In this document: positions 1 through 26,117 of the stretch, in pieces
How positions within the stretch are numbered: the first letter of the stretch is position 1
How the letters are laid out: each line of letters starts with the position of its first letter
DNA from: Stegostoma tigrinum
Taxonomy: Eukaryota
Assembly (NCBI RefSeq): GCF_030684315.1
Contig: NC_081380.1
Coordinates: forward strand, 25,293,951 to 25,357,950
DNA: 64,000 nt
Reading direction: 5' to 3'
The notes under the pieces: model-generated
What the model saw: only the letters and a program-made list of their open reading frames with translations
Databases searched by the model: none
What the model was told of the DNA's origin: nothing
Translations under genes and position numbers: made by a program

Positions 1-3000
1 CAGCCAGAACAGAAGCAGAGGATGGGTTTCATGGATGGGATGAGGTCAGACAGACCATGAGGGGCAATAAGATGGCGCAAGAGAATGAGGTGAAGTCAGG
101 GCCAGACCAGTGGGAAACTAAAGCTAGTTTAACTAGGTGGCCTACTGAAAAGGAGCAATGTGGCAGAGACAGCTGAATGGCTGGTCTTGGTCGTAGTGAT
201 AAAGAAGACCAAAAACCCCATGCGCATATTGTTAAAGATATGAATGGAGGGGATGATGAAAAGGGGTTTCAGAAAATTGAAGAAGGGAAAAGATACCTGG
301 GTTTATCTTTGCATTGATCCCGGGACAGTATGTAGTTTTAGCAGATGAGAAGTCGGAGCCCATGGTGTTGAATTTGTCAATTGATGCTAAAGCAATTGCC
401 CATCAGAGCTGAGTACTGTGCCAGGAAACAGGCAATGTCAAACAGAATAATGGTCATTTTGGATGTCAGGCATTAACGATAGAATTTGAGTAAATCGGTA
501 GCTGCAGAAGTGTTGTGACTAGCGGAGAGCCAAAGCTGATTTTTGGGATTTGGTGAGTGCAATTTTAAGTGAATTTGGAAAATTTTTTTTGTACTGCTGA
601 GTAAAACATGAGTTATGGTTGGGGGAATAGAAGGAGTTGAAGGAGGATAGTTGTGCAAGGAAAATCAGAGATGGCCATATGTATAGCTCATACAATAGGG
701 GGAATATTATAGGGATCTGAGTGACGAGGGCTACATAAAATGTTTAGCAGAATTGGCAACAAGATACATTTCATCGTCAGGAGTAACCCATGCTATCTCT
801 TATACTTCTCACAAACGGTGTGACGAGATTCTCACTAGACAGTGAGAGTGAGGCCAATTTATGGGGATTTACGCTTGTTAGATGATTTGTTAATGCTGCA
901 ACTTGCCTCTTTAATATTGAAACTTCTATATTATTTATCTCACTAAACAACTTAAGTGTTTGGAAAAGTTTGACAAGGAAACCAGAGTAAGCACTTCGCA
1001 AATTTAGCACACCGTTTGTTCCAAACAATATCTAATTTGAAATTGGGCACCGACATCTCAGGGTGCGCTACATGGATGCTGACTACATGCATTCGACATT
1101 CATGAACATTGGCATCCAACATGTGTCAGCCTCTAAGAATTTTCATGGAACATCTCCGAACCACTTGCAGGATGTTTCTGCACTTCAGCGTTGCTGTAAT
1201 GCTGCAGCAATGACACTGTGTGCTCAGGAATACGCACCCAGCTCATGGGCTGGACCAGACTGCATCTCTGTACTTGCTGTTACAGTGCACGTTCATTCAC
1301 CCCACCTTGCATTGCCTTAGCTTGCTGTTTCACGCCTGACCTTGAGACAGAGATACCAGGCTCCTATTGCTGCATTCTTGCTTGTTTCTGCCTACTGTGG
1401 GCTGTTTTCCTCGTGGAATGAGACAGAGGCAGTTATTACAGAAGATGAAAGTGGGTGTTACAGTTATTGTGGTGGTGGTGGTGGGGGCGTAGGTTCCTTA
1501 ACGATTGAGTAGGCAGCATTGAGGGCATGCAGTGTTAGTGATGTTGGTGAGGGTGAACGAGGGAGGATGTTTCAGGCAGTAGTGAAAGTGGTAGAGCATG
1601 AGCCTTCATGGGAGGTGGAAAAGGTAGCTAAGATAGAGTGAATGTGTGGTATCGGAAAGCAGATGGTGGCGGAGAGGGTAGTGGAGTCAGCCTCATTAGG
1701 GCAATTTAAGCGGCTACTAGATAGGCACATAGATAATAGTATAAGGTAGGGGTGGACGTTAGATAGATCCTAGGTTTAGGGTAAAAGTTCAGCACAACAT
1801 CATCGGCTGTGCTGTACTGTTCTATGTTCTATGTTCTATGTTCTAGTAACACCAGGGCAGTGGGGCAAACCATTAACTTTCTTCCTACACTGACGGGCAT
1901 TCCTGTACATAGCATGCACTGCTTTGCACTCGCTGGCACTCTCAGACCAGGTTGGCATATCTGGTGTTAAGGTCTCCACTGATGTTCCTGGGGGGAGAGA
2001 AGTCATGTGCACTCATGCACCATGTCCTGTATGATCTCCAGGAACTGCCTGCAAAGCAGGGCACTGATTTCCTTCTTTACTCTGTCTGGAGCAAATGGCT
2101 TCATCTATACGGTGCAGCTCAGGACTGACAGTGTTTATCCAGGGCTTTCAAAGATAGAATGGGTGCAGGTGAAGCCAATGAATTCAGGGTTATCCACTGA
2201 GTGGTGAGCCGTTCCACTGTGTGGTAAAATGGGGCAGAATTTGGATGTGAGATGCCAAGTAGGTAATTAACGAGGGAAGTTTGTGATGATGGGGCAAGAA
2301 ATGCACTAGGCTTCGCAGCAAGAAATCCTCCATAAAACCTAATGCAATTCAGAATTAGCAAGACATTGTAACCCGATTGAATTAGCGAGACTGTGAGATA
2401 CCACAGTGCTTGTGAATATGTGTTGAGGTTGTTTCCATGATTGAGGATAGGAAGGCAGTGGATTTAGAGAGTACAGTTCAATGAGTTGAAATAGAGGTTG
2501 CAAAAAACAGGTTCCATACTAAAATGGAACATTTTTTTCAAAAGTAAAACAGTTTTGATGAAAGATATCTCCTGTTATCCTGACAATGAACAAAATGTCT
2601 ATTCTGTAAAGTCTCCTCATGAAAACTTAAAAATTCTAATGCAGCATTATTGATTAAAAGCTCTGTACATGTGTCTGTGGTGAATGTACTCACTATAGTG
2701 ACTACTGTCGAATCACAAATCAACTCCAACATTAATCTCTGTTAGGATGCATTCCCTTGAGGTGACACCTAGAGAGTAGGACAGCGTTTGCGAACAGTGG
2801 GCATGTCATTCTCCATTATATAAATTGACCATCTGAACCAGTCTGCTCTGCTGGTCCATTTGGCCAGAAAGGTCTCCTTTTCCTCAATATTCTGTAACCC
2901 TATCTGCACAGTCTTCTGTTTTGTTTTCTGCGTGTACACATAGTTTCCCCTGTTGAGGCATCGTCAGAAATCATGAAAGATAACAGCCCATCTGAGAACT

Positions 3001-3989
3001 GAGACCAATTATGGAGAGTTCACATGCTCCACCATGTTTTAGATTTTTCAGATTCAGTAACTGACTGTAAAACAAGATAAAACCACAGATACAGGAGCAA
3101 AATTAGGCCATTCAGTCCATCAGGTCCACTCGATCATTTGATCATGGCTGATCTGTTTCTCAACTGTATTCTCCTGCCATTTCCCCATAACCCTTGATCC
3201 CCTTACTAATCAAAAACTTATCTCTATCTTAACTGCACTCAATGACATGGCCTCCACAGCTCTCTGCAGCAATGAGTCAAAAGATTCACCAATCTTTGGC
3301 TGAAGAAATTCCTCCTCAACTCAGTTCTAAAGAGCTGTTCCCTTCACACTGAGGCTATGCCCTGGGTTCTATCTCTTACAACACTGCGTTGTTCCCTTAT
3401 TCTTGTTTCTTGATTACTTTTTGTAGCCCATTTGACAATCAACAATTAATCTTATTTACTTTACTGCCATCTCCAGCCACTTCATCCAGTTTCATGTCAC
3501 CTTTCCCAGTACTCTCTTCGGTTATAACTGGACCTGAAACATTAAATCTGATTTCTCTTCACAGATGCTGCCAGACCTAGTGTGCTTTTCTAACTACTTT
3601 TGTTTCAGCTATTGTACAAAATGGTTTTTGGGCATCAGTCTACTGATCGCTGCAGAGCACTTGTGCAAAATGCTTATTGATTTCATTCAGGGACTGTGTC
3701 AGACCCACGATCTTTCGGCAGAATTGGGACAGGTAATAAATTTAATAGATTTTAGGCGAGAAAGATGGTGAGGCGGTGGAGTGAGAGAAGGTGGGAAAAA
3801 CGCACAGAAGTGGGGTCTGTGATTAGGTAGAAGATAGAAGAGACTAAATGATGAAAAGGTTCATGACGGAGGACCAGAGGAACTGGTTATGCAACACCCA
3901 AAGAAAACAAAATGTATCCGGGGGCACTGTGACTGGCAGAATAATGATCAGCTGCTGTTTACAACCAAAATGAAGAGAAAAATCAGAGA

Positions 3990-4270
3990 TGGCAGCACAG
4001 TGGTAATGTTACAGGTCTGGTAATCCAGAGGCTCAGGCTAATACTTTGGAGCACAGGTTCAATTTCCACCACAGCAGCTGGTGAAATTTCAATTCTGCTA
4101 ATATTCTGGTTACAGAAGGAAATCTGCTATCCTTGCCTGGTCTGACTCCAGACCTAAAGCAATGTGTCTGACACTTAACTACCTTCTGAAATGGCCTAAT
4201 AAGTACTGTGTTGAAAGGAATTAGGGATAGGCAACAAATGCTGATCTTGCCTACATTCCATTTAATAAAA
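3990..4270 (+). mobile_element. Old tRNA-headed SINE-like repeat
   Basis: ggcagcacagtggtaa head, ggttcaatttcc B-box-like, AT-rich tail; related tail sequence reversed near 4700-4830 and 13580-13800. Confidence 0.5.
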
Positions 4271-6744
4271 ACAGTAAAATGCTAAGAAAATGTAAACAAA
4301 GTGATGAGCCCGTTTGTGAATTCAGCAGATTGTAAAATGCCAAATCAACAGATAATGTGCCATCTCATGCTCTTATATTGGATATCATTGGAACCCACAA
4401 GAGGCCAAGGACAGAGAGGTCAGTGTGACCAAGGTGAAGAATGTCCAAGGATAATTCGCACTCATTCCATGAGGTCTTTTATAGTCATTAAAATTGCAGA
4501 CAGGGCTTTGGTTTACCATTTCATCTGAAAGGCAACATTCCCTCAGTGTTATTGTCTAGTAAGCTCTGGGAGGGACATTTGAGGACAAGTAGAACTAGTA
4601 AACAGGGAATGGTATCGGGTATGCAAATTGATGGAAGTTGCGTAAGAACTTTACTGCATGTATATGTACATGTTAGTTCCCGTGCTGGGTGTGGGTGTTC
4701 AGGCTGACCAGCATATAATGCCCATCCCTAATTGCCTTTGAGAAGGTGGTGGTGAGCTGTTTTTTCAAACTGCTGAAATCCATGAGCTATAAGTAGACCC
4801 ACAATGCTGTTAGAGAGTAGATTCTAAAGGAATATGTAATGTTGGATGGAATTGTATATGTCCAAATTGAAACAAAACTTTGACCAGAACAGCACACATG
4901 TAGACTCTGCCTAACCAAGTTTTTAACTGCTGGTTTGTATCACTCAGTACTGCACTGGAGTATCAATCTTGATCTCTACAATCAGGTTCTGGAGCGGAAC
5001 TTAAACCGATAACCTTTTGACTCTGAGGGGAGAACCTGCTGACACATCGAAGGCTGACAACGGAGCATTTGAATGGCATAGTCCTTTCAATACCAAGTTT
5101 GTGTGTAGCCAAAATAGATTAGTTGTTAGAACTCATACTAATCAGAAAAACTGTCAAATAAATCAAAAAACCTCTAACTTACTGTTACATTATCAGCAAA
5201 AACATAATAACAAAAAATGCAAGACTTCATACTGCCACAGACTCTAAGTTGTTGTAAGATTTGCAAATTTGAGACACCAAAATTTATCAGGGATGTCGGA
5301 AAACCACAGAGCACCTTTTGAATTTTTTTACATGATAAGGTTACTGCTGATTGATTCTAACATACATTTTAAGACAAATTGAAGATTCTTAATTTATTCA
5401 ACTTGATTAAAATTAGCAAATTCCAAGCCATTATCTGATAAATGCAAATATTCGATTTATTATATGTTATTACATTTGAGTGAAATGAAAATCTAATGTA
5501 AAATGCAGCAGCAGCAGCAATCAAGGAGTCAAATTCCTGAAATAATTCTTTTCTTAATCTGTTATTTGGTGGCCAGTCTTAGTATACAATTAAAATATAA
5601 AATAAGCATGTCTAAAGAAGATCAAACTAAACTCAGTTGCCACAAATGCCTGTAACAATGTTTCTTCACACTTCTGTTCTCTCAGTTACCTGATTTTGTA
5701 CACCTCCATAAGCAGTTGTTTTGTCAGGCCTTGACTTTCTTTTTGTGCATGTTCAACCTTAATCTTTTCTGCTCATCATATGTGCAGTGCAGTTCTGAAC
5801 AAACTTTTGTGCTTTGGAAAATGAAATTTATGCGTTTCTTTTATGGCGACTGAGTTGTGCAACATCCCAGTAATGAGGTGAAGCACACCACGTTAGTGTA
5901 CTGGCAGTGAGTACAAACCGGTCTATCCAACTTTAATTCAGAATATACTGCAATTACAACCAGCTGAAAGCTTTGGCCACACTGCCTAAATAACATTTGC
6001 CAGTAACTTCCTCAGTTGTTGTGAGGGAAAATGAGGGAAAACGAATGAAATGATCTGTAATTTGACTGCACCTTATCTAATGCTTGTTAAAAGAAATAAT
6101 TTTTCCTCACTTTTTTTAAAATCATGAATGCTGAAATGATATCATCTGCCCTTGAAATCTAGTAATGTTCGACCAGAACGTTACATTTTGAACCATGGCT
6201 CTGTACAGAATCATTTTTGACAGCAGGAGAAAATATCCTTGCGATTGCACCAGATACCAGGGATAGAGGATAGCTGATATCTCAGACTTGTGAGGTTGGA
6301 GAAGGTTACGGAGATAAGGAGGGGCAAAATCTGGAGCAATTTGAAAACAAGGATGAGAATTTCAAAATCACGACATTGCTGGATTGGCAGCTAATGTGGC
6401 TCAGTGAACATTTCAGTTTTAGGACAAGGAATCTTGGGACGATCTCAAGTTAACAGCAAATGTGTGAAACAATCCAGAAACCAGTAAAATAGCTGACATT
6501 TCTCAGCACTGTCATTGCGCAGATAGTATGCAGGAGAGCTGAAAGTAGCCCCCGATAGGTTACCGAGCAACTGTGCAGAAAATGGATCACAGCAGCATCC
6601 ATTTGTAGGCCCTGACTTTATAGAAGTAAAGACAATCTCAGTAGTAATTAGAGCAGTGAGTCCTCAATTTCCAAAACTTTCAGCTGATTCAGCGCCACAC
6701 AACTTTATCCAGCTAGAACGCAGTTGTATAGTTCCAAGCCAAAC

Positions 6745-14600: not shown

Positions 14601-15384
14601 AACTCCCGGGGGATAATTGCTGAGGTATTTACTAAGCTGACTTTTTGCAGTACAATTAATGATATTACACGGGAAGATCCCAACCATAGGTATCATTATG
14701 TATTTTGTGTAAAAATGGGGATAAAATAGTCATGTCTATCCCTTGATTTTTTTATTGTAAACAAAGGTAGCTCCCATTTAATACACTGCCTTTACAGTAA
14801 GGAGAACTGCACTTCTATAGTGGCTTTAGTTCTCAAGTAAGGAAGACATTTAAATTCAAGTTCATATTTTATTGCTTGGTTGCATTTTCACAACTGTTAG
14901 AAGTTCATTTGAAGTAGAAGTTTGCCAATTTCAGACTTATTTTTGATAAGGTTTTCTGATGTTAACTGTAGTTTTCTTTGGGCTGACAATATCAATAATC
15001 ATAAAGTTCACAACTACTGTTAGTGTTATTAAAGGAAATATGGTAATGTTTTAGTGTATTTCGACAAGGTTTTGTTTTTGTCATTTTTACATTTCAATAG
15101 TTGGAAGAACTAGGTCAGAAAAATACCATGTAGGTCTTGAAAACATGTTGTATATGGAACATTGATCAATTGAGCCACATTTAAACATTCCTCTATGAGG
15201 GACCTTTTCATCTGAATCCCAGGGGAACTAATCTATGTTGAGGAATGCTGATTTACAGTGATTAATCAGTGTAATCTGATTAATGAAATTTCATTATTAT
15301 GTACATCCAGATTTGATTGAACTTAATTGTACTCACCATACTTAAAGTGGTAATGTCTAATCCTTGAATTTTAATTCTACCTAG

Positions 15385-15534
15385 AGGCGACCAGACCTCT
15401 GCAGAGAGCTACCTTACAGTATTGCCAAAGGGGATGGAATGTGTTGTTTTCAGCATCGATGGTTCTTTTGCTGCTAGTGTCTCTATCATGGGCAGTGACC
15501 CGAAGGTCAGAGCTGGAGCTGTGGATGTGGTCAG
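15385..15534 (+). CDS. PITPNM3: PITPNM3 exon, start of LNS2 domain (GDQTSAESYLTVLPKGMECVVFSIDGSFAASVSIMGSDPKVRAGAVDVV)
   Basis: ctag| acceptor, ag|gtac donor, 150 nt, phase 2 to 2; VVFSIDGSF motif of Nir/RdgB LNS2 domain. Confidence 0.95.
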
Positions 15535-17231
15535 GTACAATGTGCACAAGCTTTCACATTTATTGCATTTCTACATGTCATGTTTTGAGACAATAAACAA
15601 TCACAAATTGTGTAAAGAATGCTGGATTCTTTCTAACAAGTTACAATTCCTGCCATCATAATGGTTATCGCAGTATTATGTTTGTGTGTTGCCATTGTGT
15701 ATTGCAATCTCAATAATTCTGATTCAAATTTTCAATGTTTGTTATTTTAATGCACTTCCAGGCTCTTGGCACTTGGTCCTATGGCACTGATTAATGAGCT
15801 CTTTGTGTGAATGTTATGGTATTTACCCAGACCTCCTGATACTTTACTCTACTTGCCATTTCTGCCAATGTGTCGTACTGGGTAAGGGTTCATTGAGTTA
15901 GTTCTCTGCCATCAATTCTCCTTTGTCTTTGTTTCAGCCAGGGCCTATGCAGTGATTCATGCTCCTGTGGAGTATCTACAGAAAAGGCATTGTTCTCGGA
16001 TAACAAGATGATTCATTTCAGGATAATCATCAGAGCAACTGTATTTGGTCAGGCATCATTATTAGGACTTTGAGGAGCTGGTACAGACCCATCTGCTCCC
16101 TCTGAAAGCCAGAATAGAACCCATGGACTGTTTGTGATATCAGTAGACTAGCTGGAGTGAATGTAACAGGAGTATTACCCTCTTCAGAACCATTACCCTA
16201 TACGACAAACAAAACCATATGAATATACAGATTATATATAAAAATCAACTTCCCATTAGTAATGACACTTTGTTCGCCAACATCTTCTCAAGGATGATGA
16301 TTGATAGACAATAAAGGCTAGCCTTGGCAGCGATATTCATGTATCAAGAAGATTGAGTAAAGGCAATTTACAAGTTGAATGGACTCATGCTTTAAACACA
16401 AATCACTGATTTACAGGAAGGCTATAATGAGCATCAGCAATGAAGACAGAGTGAGCCCATGCCAGAAATTTGTTCTTCAGATCTGTGTGTTGACTTTTGA
16501 TTAGTATATTTGAAAATGCAGCTGCTAATCCAACTGCTTCAGGCTAGAGTTCTGTATTCCCTTGTTCTCCTTATCTCGTTTCATGGTGGTAACTCCTGTC
16601 TCCTATGATCTAACATTACACTTATTTTCTGATATCTTAGTCTTGCATGTTAAGGGAGACAGTCACTCTAACATCAAGGACCTGAATAATGGATCAATTT
16701 TTGACCTACATTTTTTGAGCTTGCTCATTTACAAAGGCTACAGTTTTGAAAATACCTGTTTACAACAATGTAAGAGAACAAAATGTTAAAGGCAAACTGA
16801 TAGAAACAAACACCAAGCATAATACTATTGCCTCAAAGCTTCCATTATTCTTTCTATAACAATTTCCCTGAAATTTATTCAATGGGGTAACTTTGGGTAT
16901 TAAAAGACTAAGATCCCTTACTTTGATAGTCATTCAAGATAAAGCATTGGGTTAGATTTTAAACTTCCTGCTGGTGTAAACCTCAGTTTGTAAATCAACA
17001 GCAGGTGTAGAAACTGCACAGGATTCAAATTTCTCTTCATTAGAGATGGTGCAATGTTATTCTCACACAGTCATCCTCATGGAGAATGGGAAAACCACAG
17101 GCAGTTTCTGGAACATACGGCCCAAACTCATCTAAATCAGTAACAGCTCTTACATTGCTGTCCCATTTGTAATGCTGTCATTTTTCTCAGTGCAAGAATG
17201 GGGCTTTCAATGAAGTTTCTTCTTTTTAAAG

Positions 17232-17415
17232 ACATTGGCAGGAGCTGGGCTACCTCATCATTTACATTACTGGACGCCCAGACATGCAGAAGCAAAGGGT
17301 GGTTTCCTGGCTGGGTCAGCATAACTTTCCCCAGGGAATGATCTTCTTCTCTGAAGGCCTGGTCCATGATCCCCTGCGACAAAAAACAATCTTTCTACGC
17401 AATCTTGTGCAAGAG
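17232..17415 (+). CDS. PITPNM3: PITPNM3 LNS2 exon (HWQELGYLIIYITGRPDMQKQRVVSWLGQHNFPQGMIFFSEGLVHDPLRQKTIFLRNLVQE)
   Basis: tttttaaag| acceptor, gag|gtaatc donor, 184 nt, phase 2 to 0; translated by hand, not in ORF track. Confidence 0.95.
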
Positions 17416-18838
17416 GTAATCTCTGATCAGGCGTTATGTATAGAATACCCTTAGGAAAACAATTTTAGAACAGTAAAGAACACAAGACTTTCTGATAAAG
17501 CTGAATAAGCTCCCAATTTCAGGCTGATATGGAGTTTTTAAAATATAGAATAATGTGGATGAAGGAAATGGATTAACACTTTTCATTTGTGCTTAAAACC
17601 TGCTGAGATAGCTGGAGTGAAAGTCTCTGCTGTCTATGAAAGGGTTCTAAGTAAGAGATCGGGCCTGAGGTGAAATGGGTTTGAGTAATATTTGCTGACT
17701 TCCTAGGGAGCACAAAGCTGCTTGTAATTTGATGCTAAATGAGACTTGTAACTGAGACTAATTGATACTTTCACTCCGTGATGCTGTTGTGTAATTGTTA
17801 GTTTGTTACATATTTGATGTATTTGATTTACCTCACAGTATTTCAGAGATGGCACTTGTACTAAGTCTGCAACAGATTTATTTACAGTGCAGTTACTATA
17901 TAAATCTTATGTATTCAAATACTTGTTACATAAAACACACTTTACCTTACTGAATGCCCTGACCTACCTATTACCTGAGAAAAGCTAAGTCCCTGTGAGT
18001 TTTATTGTATATGCTGTTTCTAGTCTACTTCAAAATAACTACTTATAACAGCACAACCTAAAATCCAAGGCTGGGATTTATGGACTTGGGAGGAGTCCCA
18101 CCACTGGCATTGAAAAAAGGGCAGTGAATCTGCCTCAGCGGGCACTGGGACCTGGTGCTACCTTTTGGTGACAGTTGCCAAGTTTAAGAGGCTCCCACTG
18201 AGACTGCCATCCTTCTTAAGGATGACATTCAGGCCCCAAGATCCATTAGCCCTATCAGAAGACCAGTACCATCACCAGCATTACTACCCTGAGGATGAAG
18301 GCACACAAGATGGGTAGCAAAGTTGAGAGCAGGTGACACTCTCATTATGTGACTAAGAAGTGTCTGAAAAGGAGCTCCCACCCATATTGGTTTCATTGCT
18401 GTCACATTCAAATGTGGGGAGCCCCTAGCAGCTGGTAGAATGCCAGCAAGGATGAGAAGAAATCCTTACATGGACACTTAAATGGCTCGATTGGGCTTCT
18501 GGTGGGCAAGCCATGTGCCATCTTTCCCATCATTGGCAAAATGAGATGGCAGTGGGAAGTCAGTGGGCATTACACCTATTGCTTTCTCATGCCAATTTCT
18601 GAACTCCTAATATATCCCTAAAACAGCTGGTAAATTCTAGTTCTAAAATTTCAGAAAAAAAAGGTGTTTGTAAGTTTTAACATTTATGTCTATCTACTTT
18701 CGAGGAGCTTTCCTGCTCCTCGGATGCTGCCTGATCTGCTGTGTTCCTTCAGCTCCACACTGTATTGAGCTTCTTTGGTTCCTGGTCTGCAGTTGATTTT
18801 CAATAATGCACAGCTTTGCATTTTTGTTCTCTCCTTAG

Positions 18839-18967
18839 TCCCATATTAAGATCTCTGCTGCGTATGGCTCCATGAAAGACATTTCAGTTTACAATGTCCT
18901 AGGATTGCCAGCGTCTCAGATCTACATTGTTGGACGCCCGTCAAAAAAATATCAGAACCAGTGTCAG
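18839..18967 (+). CDS. PITPNM3: PITPNM3 exon (SHIKISAAYGSMKDISVYNVLGLPASQIYIVGRPSKKYQNQCQ)
   Basis: ctctccttag| acceptor, cag|gtaatg donor, 129 nt, phase 0 to 0; AAYGS.KD motif. Confidence 0.95.
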
Positions 18968-19474
18968 GTAATGAGTCTCTTTATTCCATGATAGAGAGTT
19001 GAATTAAATTGAGGAATTTAAAACAAAATCTATGACAAGAAACCTGTCAATTACCTCTCAGAGATACCACATTGATTGCAATAACCAGCTATTGTTTGCA
19101 CTTTCCCCCAATTTCTCTTACATTCATATTCAGTTCTTGTTTCTGTTTTTATTTAAGGTTTTTTCTTCCTTCTGCTTGATGCCTTCCTTTGCTTCACAGC
19201 TAGATGCTTAATGCTTGTATTTTTTACCTCTCCAGTCACCTGTAACTTTGTCCCTCTGTTCAGTGAACAGAGAACAGCATGTGGGAAATTGCTGTACTTC
19301 TAACCGGCTCAATGATTTTACGAGCCTTTTGAAGGGGACTGACTGGAGAGATAAACAACCATGATGATGCTTTTTCCTGTGGATTTTCCTCCACACTGAG
19401 ACCACAAACGATCCCAGACATCACCGGAAATTCAGCCTCCGCACGTAAGAGCGCCACCAAGCGGTACAATGGTC

Positions 19475-19496
19475 TACTACACTTGATCTTAGCCAA
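19475..19496 (-). pseudogene. U2 snRNA 5' fragment (nt 17-38)
   Basis: Minus strand TTGGCTAAGATCAAGTGTAGTA, 22/22 to U2 sequence as recalled. Confidence 0.88.
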
Positions 19497-19774
19497 TTTT
19501 TTTTTAAATTTAAAAAATATACTTTATTCACAGAATATACAAAAAATAAACATATTTATACACCTACCCCATCACGCTAGCTGCTCTGGGTTACCCTGGG
19601 GGTATGCACACGAACTAAAGGAAAGAAGCAAAAACAAGAACAAAGAAAGACAAAGAAAATACCCCGGCGGTCATCCCCTCGCACAGTCCCCGTTGGCCCC
19701 CTGACCAGTTGGGGAAGGTGCCAGCTGGGCCCAGTTACTGAGTGAGGCCCCTGTTACACTGTGGTCGAGGGGTC

Positions 19775-20255
19775 TCATACAGTGGTCTTTCCCCACCGCG
19801 CCTTGGTGGCGGCTGCCCCAAGCTTTAGCGCGTCCCTCAGCACATAGTCCTGGACCTTGGAGTGCGCCAGTCTACAACATTCGGTCGGGGTCAGTTCTTT
19901 CAGCTGGCAGACCAGCAAGTTGCGGGCAGACCAAAGAGCATCTTTCACCGCATTGATGGTCCTCCAGGTGCAGTTGATGTTGGTCTCGGTGTGCGTCCCG
20001 GGAAACAGCCCGTAGAGCACGGAGTCCCATGTCACGGAGCTGCTCGGGACGAACCTTGACAAGTAGCACTGCATTCCTCTCCAGACCTCCTGCGCATAGG
20101 CACACTCCAGAAGGAGGTGATAGACAGTCTCATCCCCCCCCCCGCAGCCGCCTCGAGGTGGTGCAGAGATTCCGGGCATGCATAAAGGATCTCTCACATC
20201 GTGCAGTAGACTTTACACTTTGCATATTAACACTCACAACTCGTACCCCCACTGT
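19775..20255 (-). pseudogene. ORF2 remnant: about 18 codons of endonuclease N-terminus joined to C-terminal zf-RVT-like region
   Basis: VGVRVVSVNMQSVKSTARC runs directly into RSFMHARNLC...HLLLEC...ARWGKTTV*; no RT motifs between. Confidence 0.75.
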
Positions 20256-20990
20256 GAGCAGTGACCGCGGTACCCTCCCCGAGTCCAAGGTCCAGCCCCT
20301 CCATCCGTCCCTGCATGCCCGTTGCCCGGGCAAACTGCTGGATGCTCTCTGGGCTGAGGAAACTGTCCGTGCTGCCTTCCGGGTCACACCCCCCTGTCGG
20401 GGGTACGGAGGCAGGAGAGTCCGGCTTTGGGTCAGGGTGGTGACATGCTGTTTCCAGCTTCCCGCCTGAAGGTCTGCTGCTCCCAGTCGCCTGGAGCTCT
20501 GGTTCGAGGGGTCCCGGCAGGGCCCCTGTGGCGAGTGGCTGGGTGTTGGAGCGATCTTCAGGACATCCCCTGTCACCAGGAAGCGGGGGGTGGGTGCTGC
20601 TCTCCTTCTCGCTGGCGATTTTCAACTTCTGCTTCGGACGGCCCTCCTCCGAATCCCCCTCATCAGAGGAGCTTTTATAGCCCCCCTGTAGCTACCTCTT
20701 CCCGCCTGATGGTTGTGGTGCCGGGGCCCGCTGGCGTGCCTTCCTCCTCACCTTCCGGACCGTCGTCCACTCCCCTGGGTTGCCTGTTGCCTCGTCCATC
20801 GACTCCAGGTTATCGGCGGGGGGGAGCGGAGCCTGCAGAGGCACTTTGCTGGCCTCAGGTCCATCCTGCGGGGCTGGGCCCTCCTGTACGCTGGGGGGTG
20901 GGGGGGGGGCGCTATATCCTTGCAGGGGCCTGGTGTCTTCCTCTCCTCTGGGGGGGCTTGCCCTGTGTTGCCCTTGCTGGCGACCTGGGT

Positions 20991-21728
20991 TTAGGTGGTC
21001 CCCCGCTGCGGGCATGCCCTATAGAAGTGGCCTGCTTCCCCGCAAAGGTTGCAGCTTTTCTCTTGTGGGCAATCCTTTGCAAGGTGTCCCTCCTCCCTGC
21101 AGTTCCTGCAGATGGTGGCTTTGCAGTCGGCCGCCATGTGACCTGACCTACCACTGGCATGGCAGACTTTAGGTTGCCCTGCGTAGGCCAGGTAGCCCCT
21201 GCTCCCACCGATCGCGAAGCTGGACGGTGGGTGTATGACATTCCCGTCCGCGCCCATCCTCAGCGTCACCTTGACCTGCCTCTTACTGGTCCAGATGCCA
21301 AAGGGGTCCATGATGTCAGTTAGGTCCCCTTCCACCTTCACGTGCCTTCCAAGGAAGGTCAGGACATCAACTGCTGGCACATGCGGGTTACACATGTGTA
21401 CAGTCACCATACGGCTCCTCTGCACCAGCATCACAAACAGCGGGACGGCGGTCAGTACAGAGAGGGGGCCCTCACCTTCTTTCTCCTTGAATACCTCCAG
21501 GAAGCGCTGGCAAAGCTTGGCACTCCTGAAGGTTACATCAAAGAATCCTCCCCCGGGGAAATCCTGCAGGCAGTAAATGTCCGCAGCAGCGAACCCACAA
21601 CAGTCCAACAGGACCCACTTCATGAAGAAGGTGCGGTCCACAGGTGCAACCTCATCCACTTTCTTCATAGCCACTCTGATAGTGCTCCGGACCCCCTGTC
21701 CTGGGGCACGAGCACTCGCCACAGCCAT
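20991..21728 (-). CDS. Retrotransposon ORF1 (gag-like/ZCCHC3-like), N-terminal open part; continues through frameshifts to about 20230
   Basis: ATG 21728 MAVASARAPG; CRNCREEGHLAKDC and CNLCGEAGHFYRAC CCHC knuckles plus a degenerate third (CHASGRSGHMAADC). Confidence 0.8.
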   Translation of the reverse strand: MAVASARAPGQGVRSTIRVAMKKVDEVAPVDRTFFMKWVLLDCCGFAAADIYCLQDFPGGGFFDVTFRSAKLCQRFLEVFKEKEGEGPLSVLTAVPLFVMLVQRSRMVTVHMCNPHVPAVDVLTFLGRHVKVEGDLTDIMDPFGIWTSKRQVKVTLRMGADGNVIHPPSSFAIGGSRGYLAYAGQPKVCHASGRSGHMAADCKATICRNCREEGHLAKDCPQEKSCNLCGEAGHFYRACPQRGTT

Positions 21729-21894
21729 CGTTGCAGGTCGGCTGCTGCCCTGAACCAGTGTTAGGCCGATGCCAGCATTAAGATCCACCGCTTGCAAGGG
21801 TGCACAGCCAACCCGACGTCTTCCTTCTGCTTCCAACGCAGTCGCTCTATCCTCTTCTCGGTCCACGCTGAGCCACCAAGTGTTACACTTGGTC

Positions 21895-21920
21895 TACTAC
21901 ACTTGATTTTAGCCAAAAGG
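21895..21920 (-). pseudogene. U2 snRNA 5' fragment (nt 13-38)
   Basis: Minus strand CCTTTTGGCTAAAATCAAGTGTAGTA, 25/26 to U2 as recalled. Confidence 0.88.
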
Positions 21921-23344
21921 GGCAGTTGCAGGTCTGAAAGTTAGAGAATTGGATGGATGTAAGCCAGCAGTACTGTGGAAAGCAATGGATGGAATCATTC
22001 TTTTCAATCAAAGTGGTCCTCAGAAACTGCAAAAAAGAATTATTTTTTCCTCAATATCTTATTTTAAGAAATTTCTATTTCAACAATAACTTTTCCCGAA
22101 TGGCTCATTTCAGGATGGTCCTATGTTCAATTATATTGTCTGATGCAATAGTTAGGTTAAAAATATTTTAAAATGCAAATTTGACATGGGCATAAAATAC
22201 AGTAGCAAGATTGATCATATCAGAGAGCAAAAGCAGCTACTGTCAAAACACTTTGTTACTTCTCACAAACATTTCATGCTGCATTTATTTCAATTACAAC
22301 AGGGAATTTAGCTAAACTACAGTAAAAAAAACTGCCAAAATTTACTCTTAAATACATGGTCAGTTACGTTTTTATCAAATTGACAATAGCTTTGCCTCAG
22401 CATCAAATTAACAGCTACACCATCAATTTATTATGGATAAATAATGTAAACCATTCGCTGCTATTTTTATATGCCAAAAATTATTGTGTCAGTTGCTAAT
22501 TGGTTAAGATCATTCCTTTCATGCTTAACAACACAATATTCATACCTCAGGCATGATGTGAACAGGAAATAATGACAGATGAATAACGTTTTGGGGGAAA
22601 CTTCTCTTTGCTATTTTGGGAAGGAGCTTTCAAAAATAAAATTAACTATTTTAACTGTTAATTCTTTCATTATGGGAGCAAAAGCATTTGGCCAGTCACA
22701 TTCACCCAACACAATGTCAAGCCCATGATCTTAATGCTGTAGCTGGATTTTCCTTTCTTAATAGTAGTGAATGCTGGGAGATTCACTGCTATTGAAGGAT
22801 GCAGTGAAGAGGCTTTGGTGCATCACATCGGGCTCCACAAAAATCCACACTGAAGGCCCTGTCATTCTACTTCCTATGGTGGCACAGAGCTTCAATATGT
22901 ATGCTTCGTTGAGAGCCCAGTCTCCCATTACAGATTTTCCTTTAATTACACACCTGGAGAGAAGTGAGAACTCTTTCTAATTGACAGCTTGAAAATGGCA
23001 TAATACTTTACTTTTTGTGTGATCTCTTTTGTCAATGGCTCAATATATACACACAATAGAAAATGGTGTTGGCATGTTATTTCTGATATTGATATTGATG
23101 TTGATACTTTAAACATCTGATTGACTCGACCCCTTATATGTTTGTAGCAACAGGTTATTTTTACTAAACGTTATGGGTATTTGCAAGCAGATCCATGTCG
23201 CCATTATTACTATTGGGTTCATTATTTCTGTAAAGGTTGCATAATGTGTGAGTGGGCATGGAAGTGCCAGGAGTTGGCATGGAAGATTTGAATGGCCATT
23301 GGGAGTGGATGAGAGAAATGAGTTGGCATGGAGGCACATGTATG

Positions 23345-24520
23345 ATCTTTTGAACTGATTGAATTCTTTGAAGGAGAAATGGAGAGGATTGATGAAGGCA
23401 GAGCGGCGGACGTGATCTGTGTGGACTTTAGTAATGCATTTGACAAGATTCTGCAAGAAAGGCTGGTTGGCAAGATTAGATTGCATGGAATTTGGGGACA
23501 ACAAGCCATTTGAATACAGAACTGGCTCAAAAGTAGGAGACACAGGGTGATGGTGGAGGGTGACTTTTCAAATGGGGAAGTCTGTGACCGGTGGTGTGCC
23601 ACAAGGATTACTGCTGGGTCCTTGCTTTTTGTAGTGGACAGTGAAGAAGGTTACCTTGGAATTCAACGGGATCTTGATCAAGCAGGCCAATGGGCCAAGG
23701 AGTGACAAATGGAGTTTAATTTAAATAAATTGGAGGTATCGTGTATTGGAAAGGCAAATCATGAAAGGACTTGTACACTGAATGGTAAGGTTCTGGGGAG
23801 TGATGTTGAATAAAAACACCTTGGTGTGCAGGTTCCTAGTTCCTTGAAAATGGAGACACAGATAGATAGGATAGTGAAGAAGGCATTTAGTATGATTGCC
23901 TTTATTGGCCGGTGCATTGACTATAGGAGTTGGGAGGTCATGATGAGGCTGTACAGGACATTGACTAGGCCACTTTTGGAATGCTGAGTTCACTTCTGGT
24001 CTCCCTGCGATAGGTAGAATGTTGTGAAACTTGAAAAAGGTTCATAAAAAATTTACGAGGATGTTGTCAGGTTTGGAGGGTTTGAGCTATAGGGAGCGGC
24101 TGAATAGGCTGGGGGCTTTTTTCTCTGGAACATCAGAGGCTGAGGGTTGACCTTATAGAGATTTATAAAACCATGAGGGGTATAAGTAGGGTGAATAGCC
24201 AAGGTGTTTTTCCCAGTGTAGGGCAGTCCAGAACTAGAGGGCATTTGTTTAAGGTGAGAGGGGTAAGATTTAAAAAGGGACTTAATGGGTAACATCTTCA
24301 CATAGAGAGTGTTGTGTGTGTAGAATGAGTTGCCAGAGGAAGTGGTAGAGGCTGATACAATACAACATTCCAAAGGCATCTGGAAGGGTATATAGATAGG
24401 AAAGGTTTGGAGGGATATGGGCCAACTGCTGGTGATTGGAACTAGGTTAATATCTGGTTGGCATGGACAAGTTGGAATGAAGTGTCTTTTTCCATTCAAT
24501 ACAGTTCTATGACTCCACAA
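23345..24520 (+). mobile_element. CR1-type LINE 3' fragment, degenerate RT
   Basis: DEGRAADVICVDFSNAFDK and GVPQG..LGP motifs, CR1-like C-terminus, ctatgactc tail. Confidence 0.8.
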
Positions 24521-25160
24521 CTCAAATGGCTTCAGAGTACAAATAATAATTCATGCCTTGCTTGAGAAGCTATGGACCGTGAGTTGGGATAAAAGTGGGC
24601 CCAACTCCATGAAAATGGCAGTGATGTAGTTTCTAGGATGTGCCTAAACTTGAAATGCAACCGAACACATAGGCAGCCCTGGTGTATGCTATAAATAGCT
24701 TATACCACATTTCCTTCCTGATCATGAGCCACATCTTGTGGTGGAAACTCAGTATTGCACCAGTCTTTATATTCTTAGCCAATAAAATCCTTTGGATTAA
24801 GCATTGTTTTGCATCTTTTTATCCTCTCTTCAGCGCTTTAAAATTACTTGGAAGAGAGCTCCAATTTGTTCTGTGCTTTTGAATTATTATTGTTACTTTA
24901 GTCAGAAGACTGTAGTGATAACAACAACAACTGAACCATCATAGAAAAAGGTGCAAAAAGCTGAAAGATTTTCTTCAAACAGTTGTCTTGAGAGGCCAGT
25001 ACAGACCTCAAGATTATGTTGCTGCCTGCATTTTAGGACTCAAGAAGTAATTTTTTTTGTTATAAGTTCATAACTTTTAAAATCAAAAATGATTAAACTG
25101 TAAGGCAGATTGCATAGAGTGGGCTGGTATTCCTTTGAATATAGAAGAGTAAAGAGTGAT

Positions 25161-25437
25161 CTAGATTAGATTAGATTCCCTACAGTGTGGAAACAGGCCC
25201 TTCGACCCATCAAGTCCACACCACCCCTTGAAGCATCCCACCCACCCCTGAACACTACAGGCAATTTAGCATGGCCAATCCATCTAGCCTGCACATCTTT
25301 GGACTGTGGGAGGAAACCAGAGCACACAGACATGGGGAGAATGTGCAAACTCCGCACAGGCAGTTACCCGAGGCGGGAATCAAACCCAGGTCCCTGGCGC
25401 TGTGTGACTTCAGTGCTAACCACTGAGCCACTGTGTT
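25161..25437 (-). mobile_element. V-SINE (HE1-like)
   Basis: Same head, V-domain and (TCTAA)n tail as 9915-10229. Confidence 0.85.
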
Positions 25438-26117
25438 GAGATATTTCAGATTATCCAAGGATTTGACAGTGTACGCCCTGATTATGTCTGTGTTGGGGAG
25501 GCCCACCCACATTATTTAATCTCACCACCAATTGAAACCCCTAATGGGCAATTAATGTCCACTTAAGGACCTCATTACAGACCTCCAGTATTAACCCAAC
25601 AGTGGACTGGGGTGGTCAACACATAGAGCACGTCAAGCAGACGAGTCGTGGCTTGCTTTCAGGCCCCTGGGAGATATGGAGTACCTAGTTTAAAGGAATG
25701 CAATGTTGGCATTGGGAAGGTGGTGACACACTGAATATCCAGCCTTTTCTGCTGACCCCTCTGGGTGACTGCCTCCCACCATCACACATCTGTGGCCTAG
25801 GATCCAGTGAAAGCCCTGATCCCATAGAAATGCTTGCTGCTGTCAAGTGCCTGAGGGAAAGGCGAAGATGTTGAACTTCCCCTGTAAAGGTGATGTGAAG
25901 CCCTTGCCTCCCCTCCAGTTGTACAAGGTTCCACCCCAGATTTCCTGGCAGGGGGAATAGAGAATAAAGGGAAGTAGTCTTCAGAATAGAGTTTGTCCTG
26001 TCAGGAGCAAAATCAGGAAACACTTCCTCACACAAAATAGAAATTCTCTCTGTTGAAAGGCTGTTAATGCTGGGGCTATTAAAGCTTTTGAGCCATAGAT
26101 TCTTAATCTTTGAATAG

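Follow-up and report, generated by a model that had tools for sequence, protein, structure and literature searches.

The 64,000-nt stretch of Stegostoma tigrinum DNA analysed here (the window) holds the remains of a Tx1-type LINE whose A-tail runs directly into the 5' end of a short retroelement headed by U2 snRNA sequence. Comparisons with related copies across the genome suggest that the LINE belongs to a small, U2-associated and Keno-like subfamily and that the U2-type head at its 5' end was probably carried in with the element's RNA rather than left by a plain target site duplication (TSD). The locus itself is a dead intronic insertion with no evident function now. The host gene belongs to the PITPNM family, and the insertion is antisense to it, in the intron after the exon at 18839..18967; a protein motif places the next exon, presumably, at about 26446. 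The parts of the locus are as follows:

18839..18967, plus strand: host gene exon, PITPNM family, LNS2 domain (Pfam PF24694, E 3e-8)
19369..19496, minus strand: copy of the short U2-headed tailless retroposon, starting at U2 nt 17 and ending in GAAAAAGC, then ATC
19497..19528, minus strand: AATAAA signal (19528-19523) and A-tail (19505-19497), read from the sequence
19497..21867, minus strand: dead Tx1-type non-LTR retrotransposon, 2.37 kb left from an element of about 5.35 kb, about 84% identical to the full-length copy L182
19775..20193, minus strand: ORF2 C-terminal remnant (zf-RVT E 2e-4, below the Pfam cutoff)
20193..20195, minus strand: internal deletion junction, about 3.0 kb gone (L182 positions 1681 to 4718), endonuclease and reverse transcriptase (RT) lost
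20991..21728, minus strand: N-terminal part of ORF1 with two ZCCHC3-type RNA-binding domains and CCHC knuckles (Pfam PF23057, PF23058, PF00098)
21868..21871, minus strand: TCAG between head and LINE, common to the window and the LINE copy L167 and equal to U2 nt 49-52
21872..21920, minus strand: 5' head, the first part of the short U2-headed element (about nt 13-62 in U2 numbering), by sequence comparison

Full-length relatives of the LINE measure about 5.35 kb. ORF1 in the window has a premature stop at the end of its intact part and is broken from there to about 20227, and its named relatives all come from cartilaginous fishes. The ORF2 of L167, a natural copy, retains RVT_1 (E 6e-33), zf-RVT (E 4e-8) and Exo_endo_phos (E 4e-5, just under the cutoff), which gives that copy the Tx1-type layout of CCHC knuckles in ORF1, AP endonuclease, RT and C-terminal zinc motif in ORF2, and an A-tail. 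These domains and the A-tail bear out the preliminary description of the window, which had placed a Tx1-like LINE between two U2 matches; the Tx1 label itself is a putative one, given by the domain layout.

With L006, a natural U2 gene found elsewhere in the genome, as the reference for numbering, the minus strand reads U2 nt 13-38 at the head (21920-21895, 25/26 identical) and U2 nt 17-38 after the A-tail (19496-19475, 22/22 identical), just as first described. Two such matches stand against a mean of 0.00 across 100 shuffles of the window. Genome-wide, the 22-mer of nt 17-38 has 16 exact matches (control 0), which comprise 11 U2 gene-like loci, three U2 retrocopies and the two in the window. 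GACCA follows both window matches directly and the remaining U2 is missing from the window by BLAST, as also reported earlier; an Rfam scan of 15000-26000 returned neither U2 nor any other family. Both junctions are crossed by Logan contigs from four runs (one sample, possibly the assembly's source), and the composite is therefore not an assembly artefact. No empty site was seen in the only public sample that covered the flank, where the insertion is present. An inverted repeat at 22718-22739 was considered as a LINE fragment and rejected, as the repeat does not extend into one.

The short U2-headed element and variant U2 units

Two features of the preliminary description did not survive this comparison: the bare U2 ends and the 27-bp length of their repeat. 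The window head matches the short element up to about nt 62, so the repeat measures some 45 bp, with identity in 40 of its 45 columns, and both U2 matches form the 5' part of a retroposon of about 155 nt. This element, overlooked at first, accounts for GACCA at both ends, which does not mark where the LINE begins; its body in the window continues from GACCA at 19474-19369. Copies are dispersed through the genome (58 and 99 first-look candidates) and combine a U2-like head with a non-U2 body of 115 nt that stays constant and with one fixed 3' end, GAAAAAGC(A), the end motif being present in 44 of the 45 distinct copies that we examined. Some are truncated at the 5' end, and in three (L068, L071 and L132) the U2-like head reaches nt 1. 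The Rfam U2 model matches L066 with an E value of 7e-6, below the gathering score. Median pairwise identity of the body is 84% among 33 aligned copies, so the short element is old. Stopping at nt 38, which the first reading noted at both ends, does describe the two matches in the window but is no general trait: canonical U2 sequence is followed that far in just one of the 33 aligned copies (the window's), most departing at about nt 35, and the LINE junctions fall at nt 52 (5') and nt 40-43 (3').

The ends of the short element are those of a tailless retroposon. None of the 44 listed ends has an A-tail or polyA, and TSD scores of at least 8 were obtained for 14 of the 44 copies, compared to 1.2% with swapped flanks. 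The bases that follow the end (A in 40, T in 28, C in 25, T in 20 and G in 16 of 44) decay along ATCTG, which is U2 nt 38-42, and ATC follows in 20/44 copies versus a background of 1.6%. DNA and pattern searches for an autonomous element with the same 3' end, with the best candidates scored, led to 11 stretches that held only short truncated copies or chance matches. Four identical copies on unplaced contigs (L137-L140) were examined as source genes and rejected, having neither a U2 head nor a promoter. A Utopia origin of the 3' end was rejected as well, with no match to four short motifs among the entries listed from the Utopia supplements. Six copies of the short element (L050, L057, L065, L074, L075 and L118) and one U2-headed LINE copy (L197) share one ATCTG-like insertion spot, close to the 3' end of another abundant LINE that is presumably CR1-like. 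A further copy of the short element (L135) is embedded in sequence resembling ORF1 from a diverged Tx1 family.

Variant U2 loci retain the short element next to a U2-type promoter. L129 is a degenerate U2 gene whose upstream region shows homology over about 400 bp (score 168, with shuffles reaching 38 at most); the short element interrupts it at nt 38/39, and U2 nt 38-186 comes next. A search with the 3' part of the variant U2 gave 194 first-look candidates, of which 40 were scored and 30 fetched. The short element or a deleted form of it stood directly upstream at nt 38/39, behind promoter homology, in 13 of the 30 loci; the LINE A-tail stood at nt 41-43 in another 13; the last four were fragments and none was intact. 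All 26 informative loci are thus interrupted at the Keno site of U2, counts that represent a few events multiplied by segmental duplication, whereas canonical U2 genes matched by exact pattern are uninterrupted. The promoter-bearing loci of the short element lack U2 nt 1-21 and are therefore not the source of the full-headed copies; we did not find that source. Three matches were obtained to the exact pattern of the window head, and neither of the two examined, the window itself and L167, is a promoter-bearing master.

The variant unit, which has an altered branch-site region, is segmentally amplified (L202, L204-L228, L233-L261 and L265-L287) on contigs C10, C13 and C51 and many unplaced contigs, and one unit carries two stacked LINE insertions. 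Canonical U2 genes (L001-L005 at G000:C2:162.95-162.99 Mb, and L153) occur in a 7.6-kb tandem unit; some hundreds of bases past the gene, this unit also contains old Tx1-like sequence. The genome has tailless U2 retrocopies as well (L013 and L016), which break off around nt 38-40: L013 stops at nt 40 and has a TSD, and in L016 the U2 sequence reaches nt 38, where another piece of the U2 5' end begins. They and L007 occupy roughly one position within a short repeat that is abundant in the genome.

Instead of being a parasite, the short element could derive by retrocopying from a small RNA of sharks, a structured and functional paralog of U2, a reading that we regard as very improbable. Its folding z-scores (-3.2 and -2.5) and the four predicted hairpins (92.9% of cells paired) would suit such an RNA, as would the variable loops and a first hairpin resembling stem IIa. 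Covariation does not rise above shuffles, however (219 of 500 reach the score), and RNAalifold returned a weak and different consensus. Furthermore, no intact promoter-bearing gene was found that lacks a U2 remainder downstream, and the promoter-bearing loci have the element followed by U2 from nt 38 onward, an arrangement like that of an insertion. The first body hairpin (alignment columns 43-62) matches U2 stem IIa in position and size but not in sequence, and loops differ from copy to copy.

U2-type heads of the LINE

Thirty loci carry the diagnostic 5' motif of the U2-associated LINE subfamily, and all have a U2-type head: 26 of them are copies of a single duplicated unit, and the others are the window, L197, L198 and L201. 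Searching for the junction brought in L268 and a further 21 promoter-bearing loci, in two groups. In promoter-bearing variant U2 loci the LINE begins directly behind U2 nt 52, the same point at which the heads of L197, L198 and L268 meet it. Five dispersed copies (window, L167, L197, L198 and L268) have U2-type heads without an upstream U2 promoter. In a tree of 38 LINE copies (916 columns, no row dropped), the window, L167, L197 and L198 form a clade with support of 100/98; the remaining U2-headed rows form a second group. Overall, the U2-headed copies do not emerge as a single clade (two changes), and a single origin is recovered in 37% of the bootstrap trees.

Two of the dispersed copies bear directly on how a head is acquired. 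L198 consists of U2 2-52, the LINE and U2 40-188, with a 13-bp duplication. In L197, a U2 15-52 head lies within a 73-bp duplication of a non-U2 site that starts with ATCTG, and this head has two non-canonical substitutions in common with that of L268. A head inside a non-U2 duplication and substitutions common to two loci indicate that the head travels with the RNA and is inherited from a master. L155 (G000:C59:10058608) is a diverged U2 gene with a promoter and with a 5' variant similar to the L197 and L268 heads.

L167 provides the closest comparison for the window. It has the same short-element-type head and junction (the two heads are identical at 41 of 49 positions). In both copies the A-tail leads into a short element, but the points of contact differ: nt 17 in the window and about nt 41, or nt 26 of a deleted subtype, in L167. 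A common head-LINE junction combined with different tail junctions was counted in favour of an RNA-borne head. In other copies the A-tail meets U2 itself, at nt 40 (L198) or nt 41-43 (L230, L231 and the L240-L256 group). The reuse of U2-like heads as landing sites, proposed in the preliminary description, is also seen, with LINEs stacked into such heads in the window, L167 and the L202 group.

The head of the window might still be local DNA. A U2-type LINE truncated to the last 4 nt of its head could have entered a copy of the short element and produced a plain TSD of about 45 bp (nt 17-62), a reading that would leave the account of the subfamily and of the short element unchanged and that we consider unlikely. 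The 40/45 identity between head and tail speaks for it, and the two have in common the rare form with canonical U2 as far as nt 38, present in 1/33 aligned copies (the window's own) and counted against an RNA-borne head; L197 shows that a duplication of 73 bp can occur. Compared with its own tail and with L048, the head obtains nearly equal scores (33.5 and 34.5), as a true 45-bp duplication also would. On the other hand, L167 repeats the junction, including the same 2-nt shortening, with a head that is unlike its tail and begins well 5' of the point where the tail joins. At unrelated sites, 5'-truncated members of the family have ordinary TSDs of 9-21 bp.

We also weighed the retrotransposition of a composite RNA, transcribed from a short-element gene that already held the LINE and moved as a unit via the 3' end of the short element. 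The composite does end like free short elements (GAAAAAGC then ATC), and L198, which has no promoter upstream, still keeps a U2 3' flank, as could be the case for a co-transcript that has moved. Yet the tail junctions of the window and L167 differ, so one master cannot yield both, and no outer TSD surrounds the window composite, which makes this route decidedly improbable.

Independent template switches to ordinary U2 snRNA, as in U6-L1-type chimeras or tailless retropseudogenes, would produce U2 heads at random sites with neither U2 targeting nor a U2-driven master. The tailless retrocopies L013 and L016 speak for this explanation, and the mechanism has been described in published work (PMC4494074, PMC5322556). 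The interruption of all 26 informative variant loci at the Keno site and the variant heads, with substitutions common to separate copies, largely rule this explanation out, and the fixed nt-52 junction and the constant, non-U2 body of the short element also speak against it; we find it scarcely credible.

In a variant U2 unit with some 400 bp of upstream U2 homology still in place, the LINE subfamily and the short element are both found at the Keno site or beside it, and both are also dispersed with U2-type heads, partly with TSDs. In the scenario that we favor, an RNA-borne head, Pol II read-through from U2-type promoters would have made U2-headed RNAs, which an AP-type endonuclease with a loose preference for U2-like ATCTG would then have inserted. 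A LINE master may have landed in a short-element gene, which would give the longer head of the window and L167. The window LINE would then have entered a copy of the short element between nt 16 and nt 17; alternatively, the two could have been joined end to end by template jumping in one event. ORF2 was deleted at some point. The short element may have been mobilised by the LINE, although it has no 3' tail in common with it, a point counted against this model. The U2 junctions of the two also differ by 1-4 nt (nt 38/39 for the short element and nt 40-43 for the LINE), so another enzyme may have moved the short element.

The wider LINE family and its Penelope-like target

The LINE family is abundant (2086 and 1669 first-look candidates, which are not copy numbers), and family-wide U2 specificity is absent. 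No U2 sequence was detected at the 5' junctions (0/29) or at the 3' junctions (0/29) of the closest other family copies. Of the 29 closest 5' ends, 27 adjoin one Penelope-like target with a hammerhead-like motif, and only the U2 subfamily shows U2-type heads (30/30 loci). Likewise, 17/29 of the closest 3' ends sit in the Penelope-like target. Co-transcription of the head from U2 loci, originally proposed for the family as a whole, is accordingly supported for the LINE subfamily and the short element and does not hold for the family as a whole.

The labels Penelope-like and hammerhead-like are leads from sequence comparison. An exact hammerhead core is present in 6/29 flanks of the target, Rfam did not recognise the hammerhead-like motif, and a GIY-YIG match upstream in the target (E 0.0025) falls below the cutoff. 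Hammerheads have been reported in Penelope-like elements. A literature search found no published account of a Tx1 LINE with a Penelope or hammerhead target.

The main (sister) subfamily (5' ends L018-L046 and L180-L186; 3' ends L084-L106) inserts in the Penelope-like 3' end, at a hammerhead-like hairpin, and carries a target-derived head of about 55 nt with fixed differences from the target. Of its 25 typed 5' heads, 21 have letters found in 0/17 target-type 3' flanks. The main subfamily behaves like the U2 one, but at a different target: its heads and 3' target flanks differ at fixed positions. The two subfamilies, one targeted to U2 and the other to a transposon, coexist at about 90% identity, each with a target-matched head.

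Tentatively, and as a possibility somewhat short of an even chance, we propose that the genomes of cartilaginous fishes contain a short U2-headed retroposon, tailless and so far undescribed, for which hijacked U2 promoters drive Pol II transcription and the Keno site serves as target, plus one Tx1 family that switches targets (U2 gene, short element and Penelope hammerhead-like end) and always carries a copy of the target at its 5' end. If this is true, the carried head supplies both expression and homology-guided 5' joining, and target switching follows from the capture of a promoter or ribozyme.

Comparison with known systems

Keno is a Tx1-clade, APE-type LINE specific for U2 snRNA genes, with a 3' flank that starts at U2 nt 39, according to the papers that describe it (PMC4494074, PMC4640811 and PMC6136364 for the element; PMC4640811 and PMC6136364 for the flank). 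The U2 subfamily resembles Keno in several respects: it has a Tx1-type ORF1, an ORF2 with APE and RT in L167 and insertions in U2 genes, it is low in copy number, and its insertions lie next to the 3' target given as starting at nt 39. It differs from Keno in its 3' junctions (nt 40-43 rather than 39) and in its presence in variant U2 units, not canonical genes, and most of the family lies in the Penelope-like target or at unrelated sites. Utopia elements, which are RLE-type, also target U2 (PMC4640811). Their U2 site at nt 39 coincides with the 3' junction of the short element, and they similarly relax their specificity outside U2 and lose the 5' part of U2 at insertions. Utopia has an RLE and a single ORF, in contrast to the two ORFs and APE-type N-terminal domain of the LINE described here.

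U2-headed retroposons are not new in themselves. Keno, U2-headed Tx1 families and the SINEU elements have all been published (PMC4494074, PMC4640811, PMC6136364), including Tx1-11_Crp, a Tx1 family with a U2 head (PMC4494074). SINEUs are described in the same paper (Kojima 2015) as U1- or U2-headed short retroposons, found only in crocodilians and always with polyA, and it leaves their transcription open. Like them, the shark element is short (<500 nt), has a U2-derived 5' head and a non-U2 body, shows 5' truncation and TSDs, has no autonomous partner with the same 3' end and was likely moved by a Tx1 element. In contrast to SINEUs, it has no polyA, occurs in cartilaginous fish and inserts at the Keno site of U2 with an ATCTG-like preference, and loci behind a U2-type promoter exist. 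SINEU-2 and SINEU-3 are described as mostly snRNA-derived (PMC4494074), which the body of the short element is not. Tailless U2 retropseudogenes (PMC5322556) resemble it in having no A-tail, TSDs and a target that resembles the RNA just past the 3' end; the short element departs from them in its constant 115-nt non-U2 body and fixed 3' end, which are not those of a U2 truncation.

What is new is a SINEU-like element in cartilaginous fish, together with promoter-bearing loci that make SINEU transcription testable. The literature searches turned up no published description of a SINEU-like element in a shark, nor any paper on U2 snRNA and Tx1 in sharks; the short element may already have an entry in Repbase or Dfam. 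A term search of a shark SINE paper (PMC5499810) showed no mention of snRNA, SINEU, Tx1 or Keno. The short element in U2 units that keep their upstream region offers a concrete candidate source for the transcription of snRNA-headed retroposons.

The Tx1-Mar families offer another parallel; they are Keno-related Tx1 LINEs that target another transposon, some with U2 or U1 heads common to a short partner element (PMC4494074). The target is Mariner there and Penelope-like here, and the shark has both a U2-targeted subfamily and one aimed at a transposon, about 90% identical to each other and with target-matched heads. Two such close LINE subfamilies, with different targets and a head to match each, make a compact case for target change in site-specific retrotransposons.
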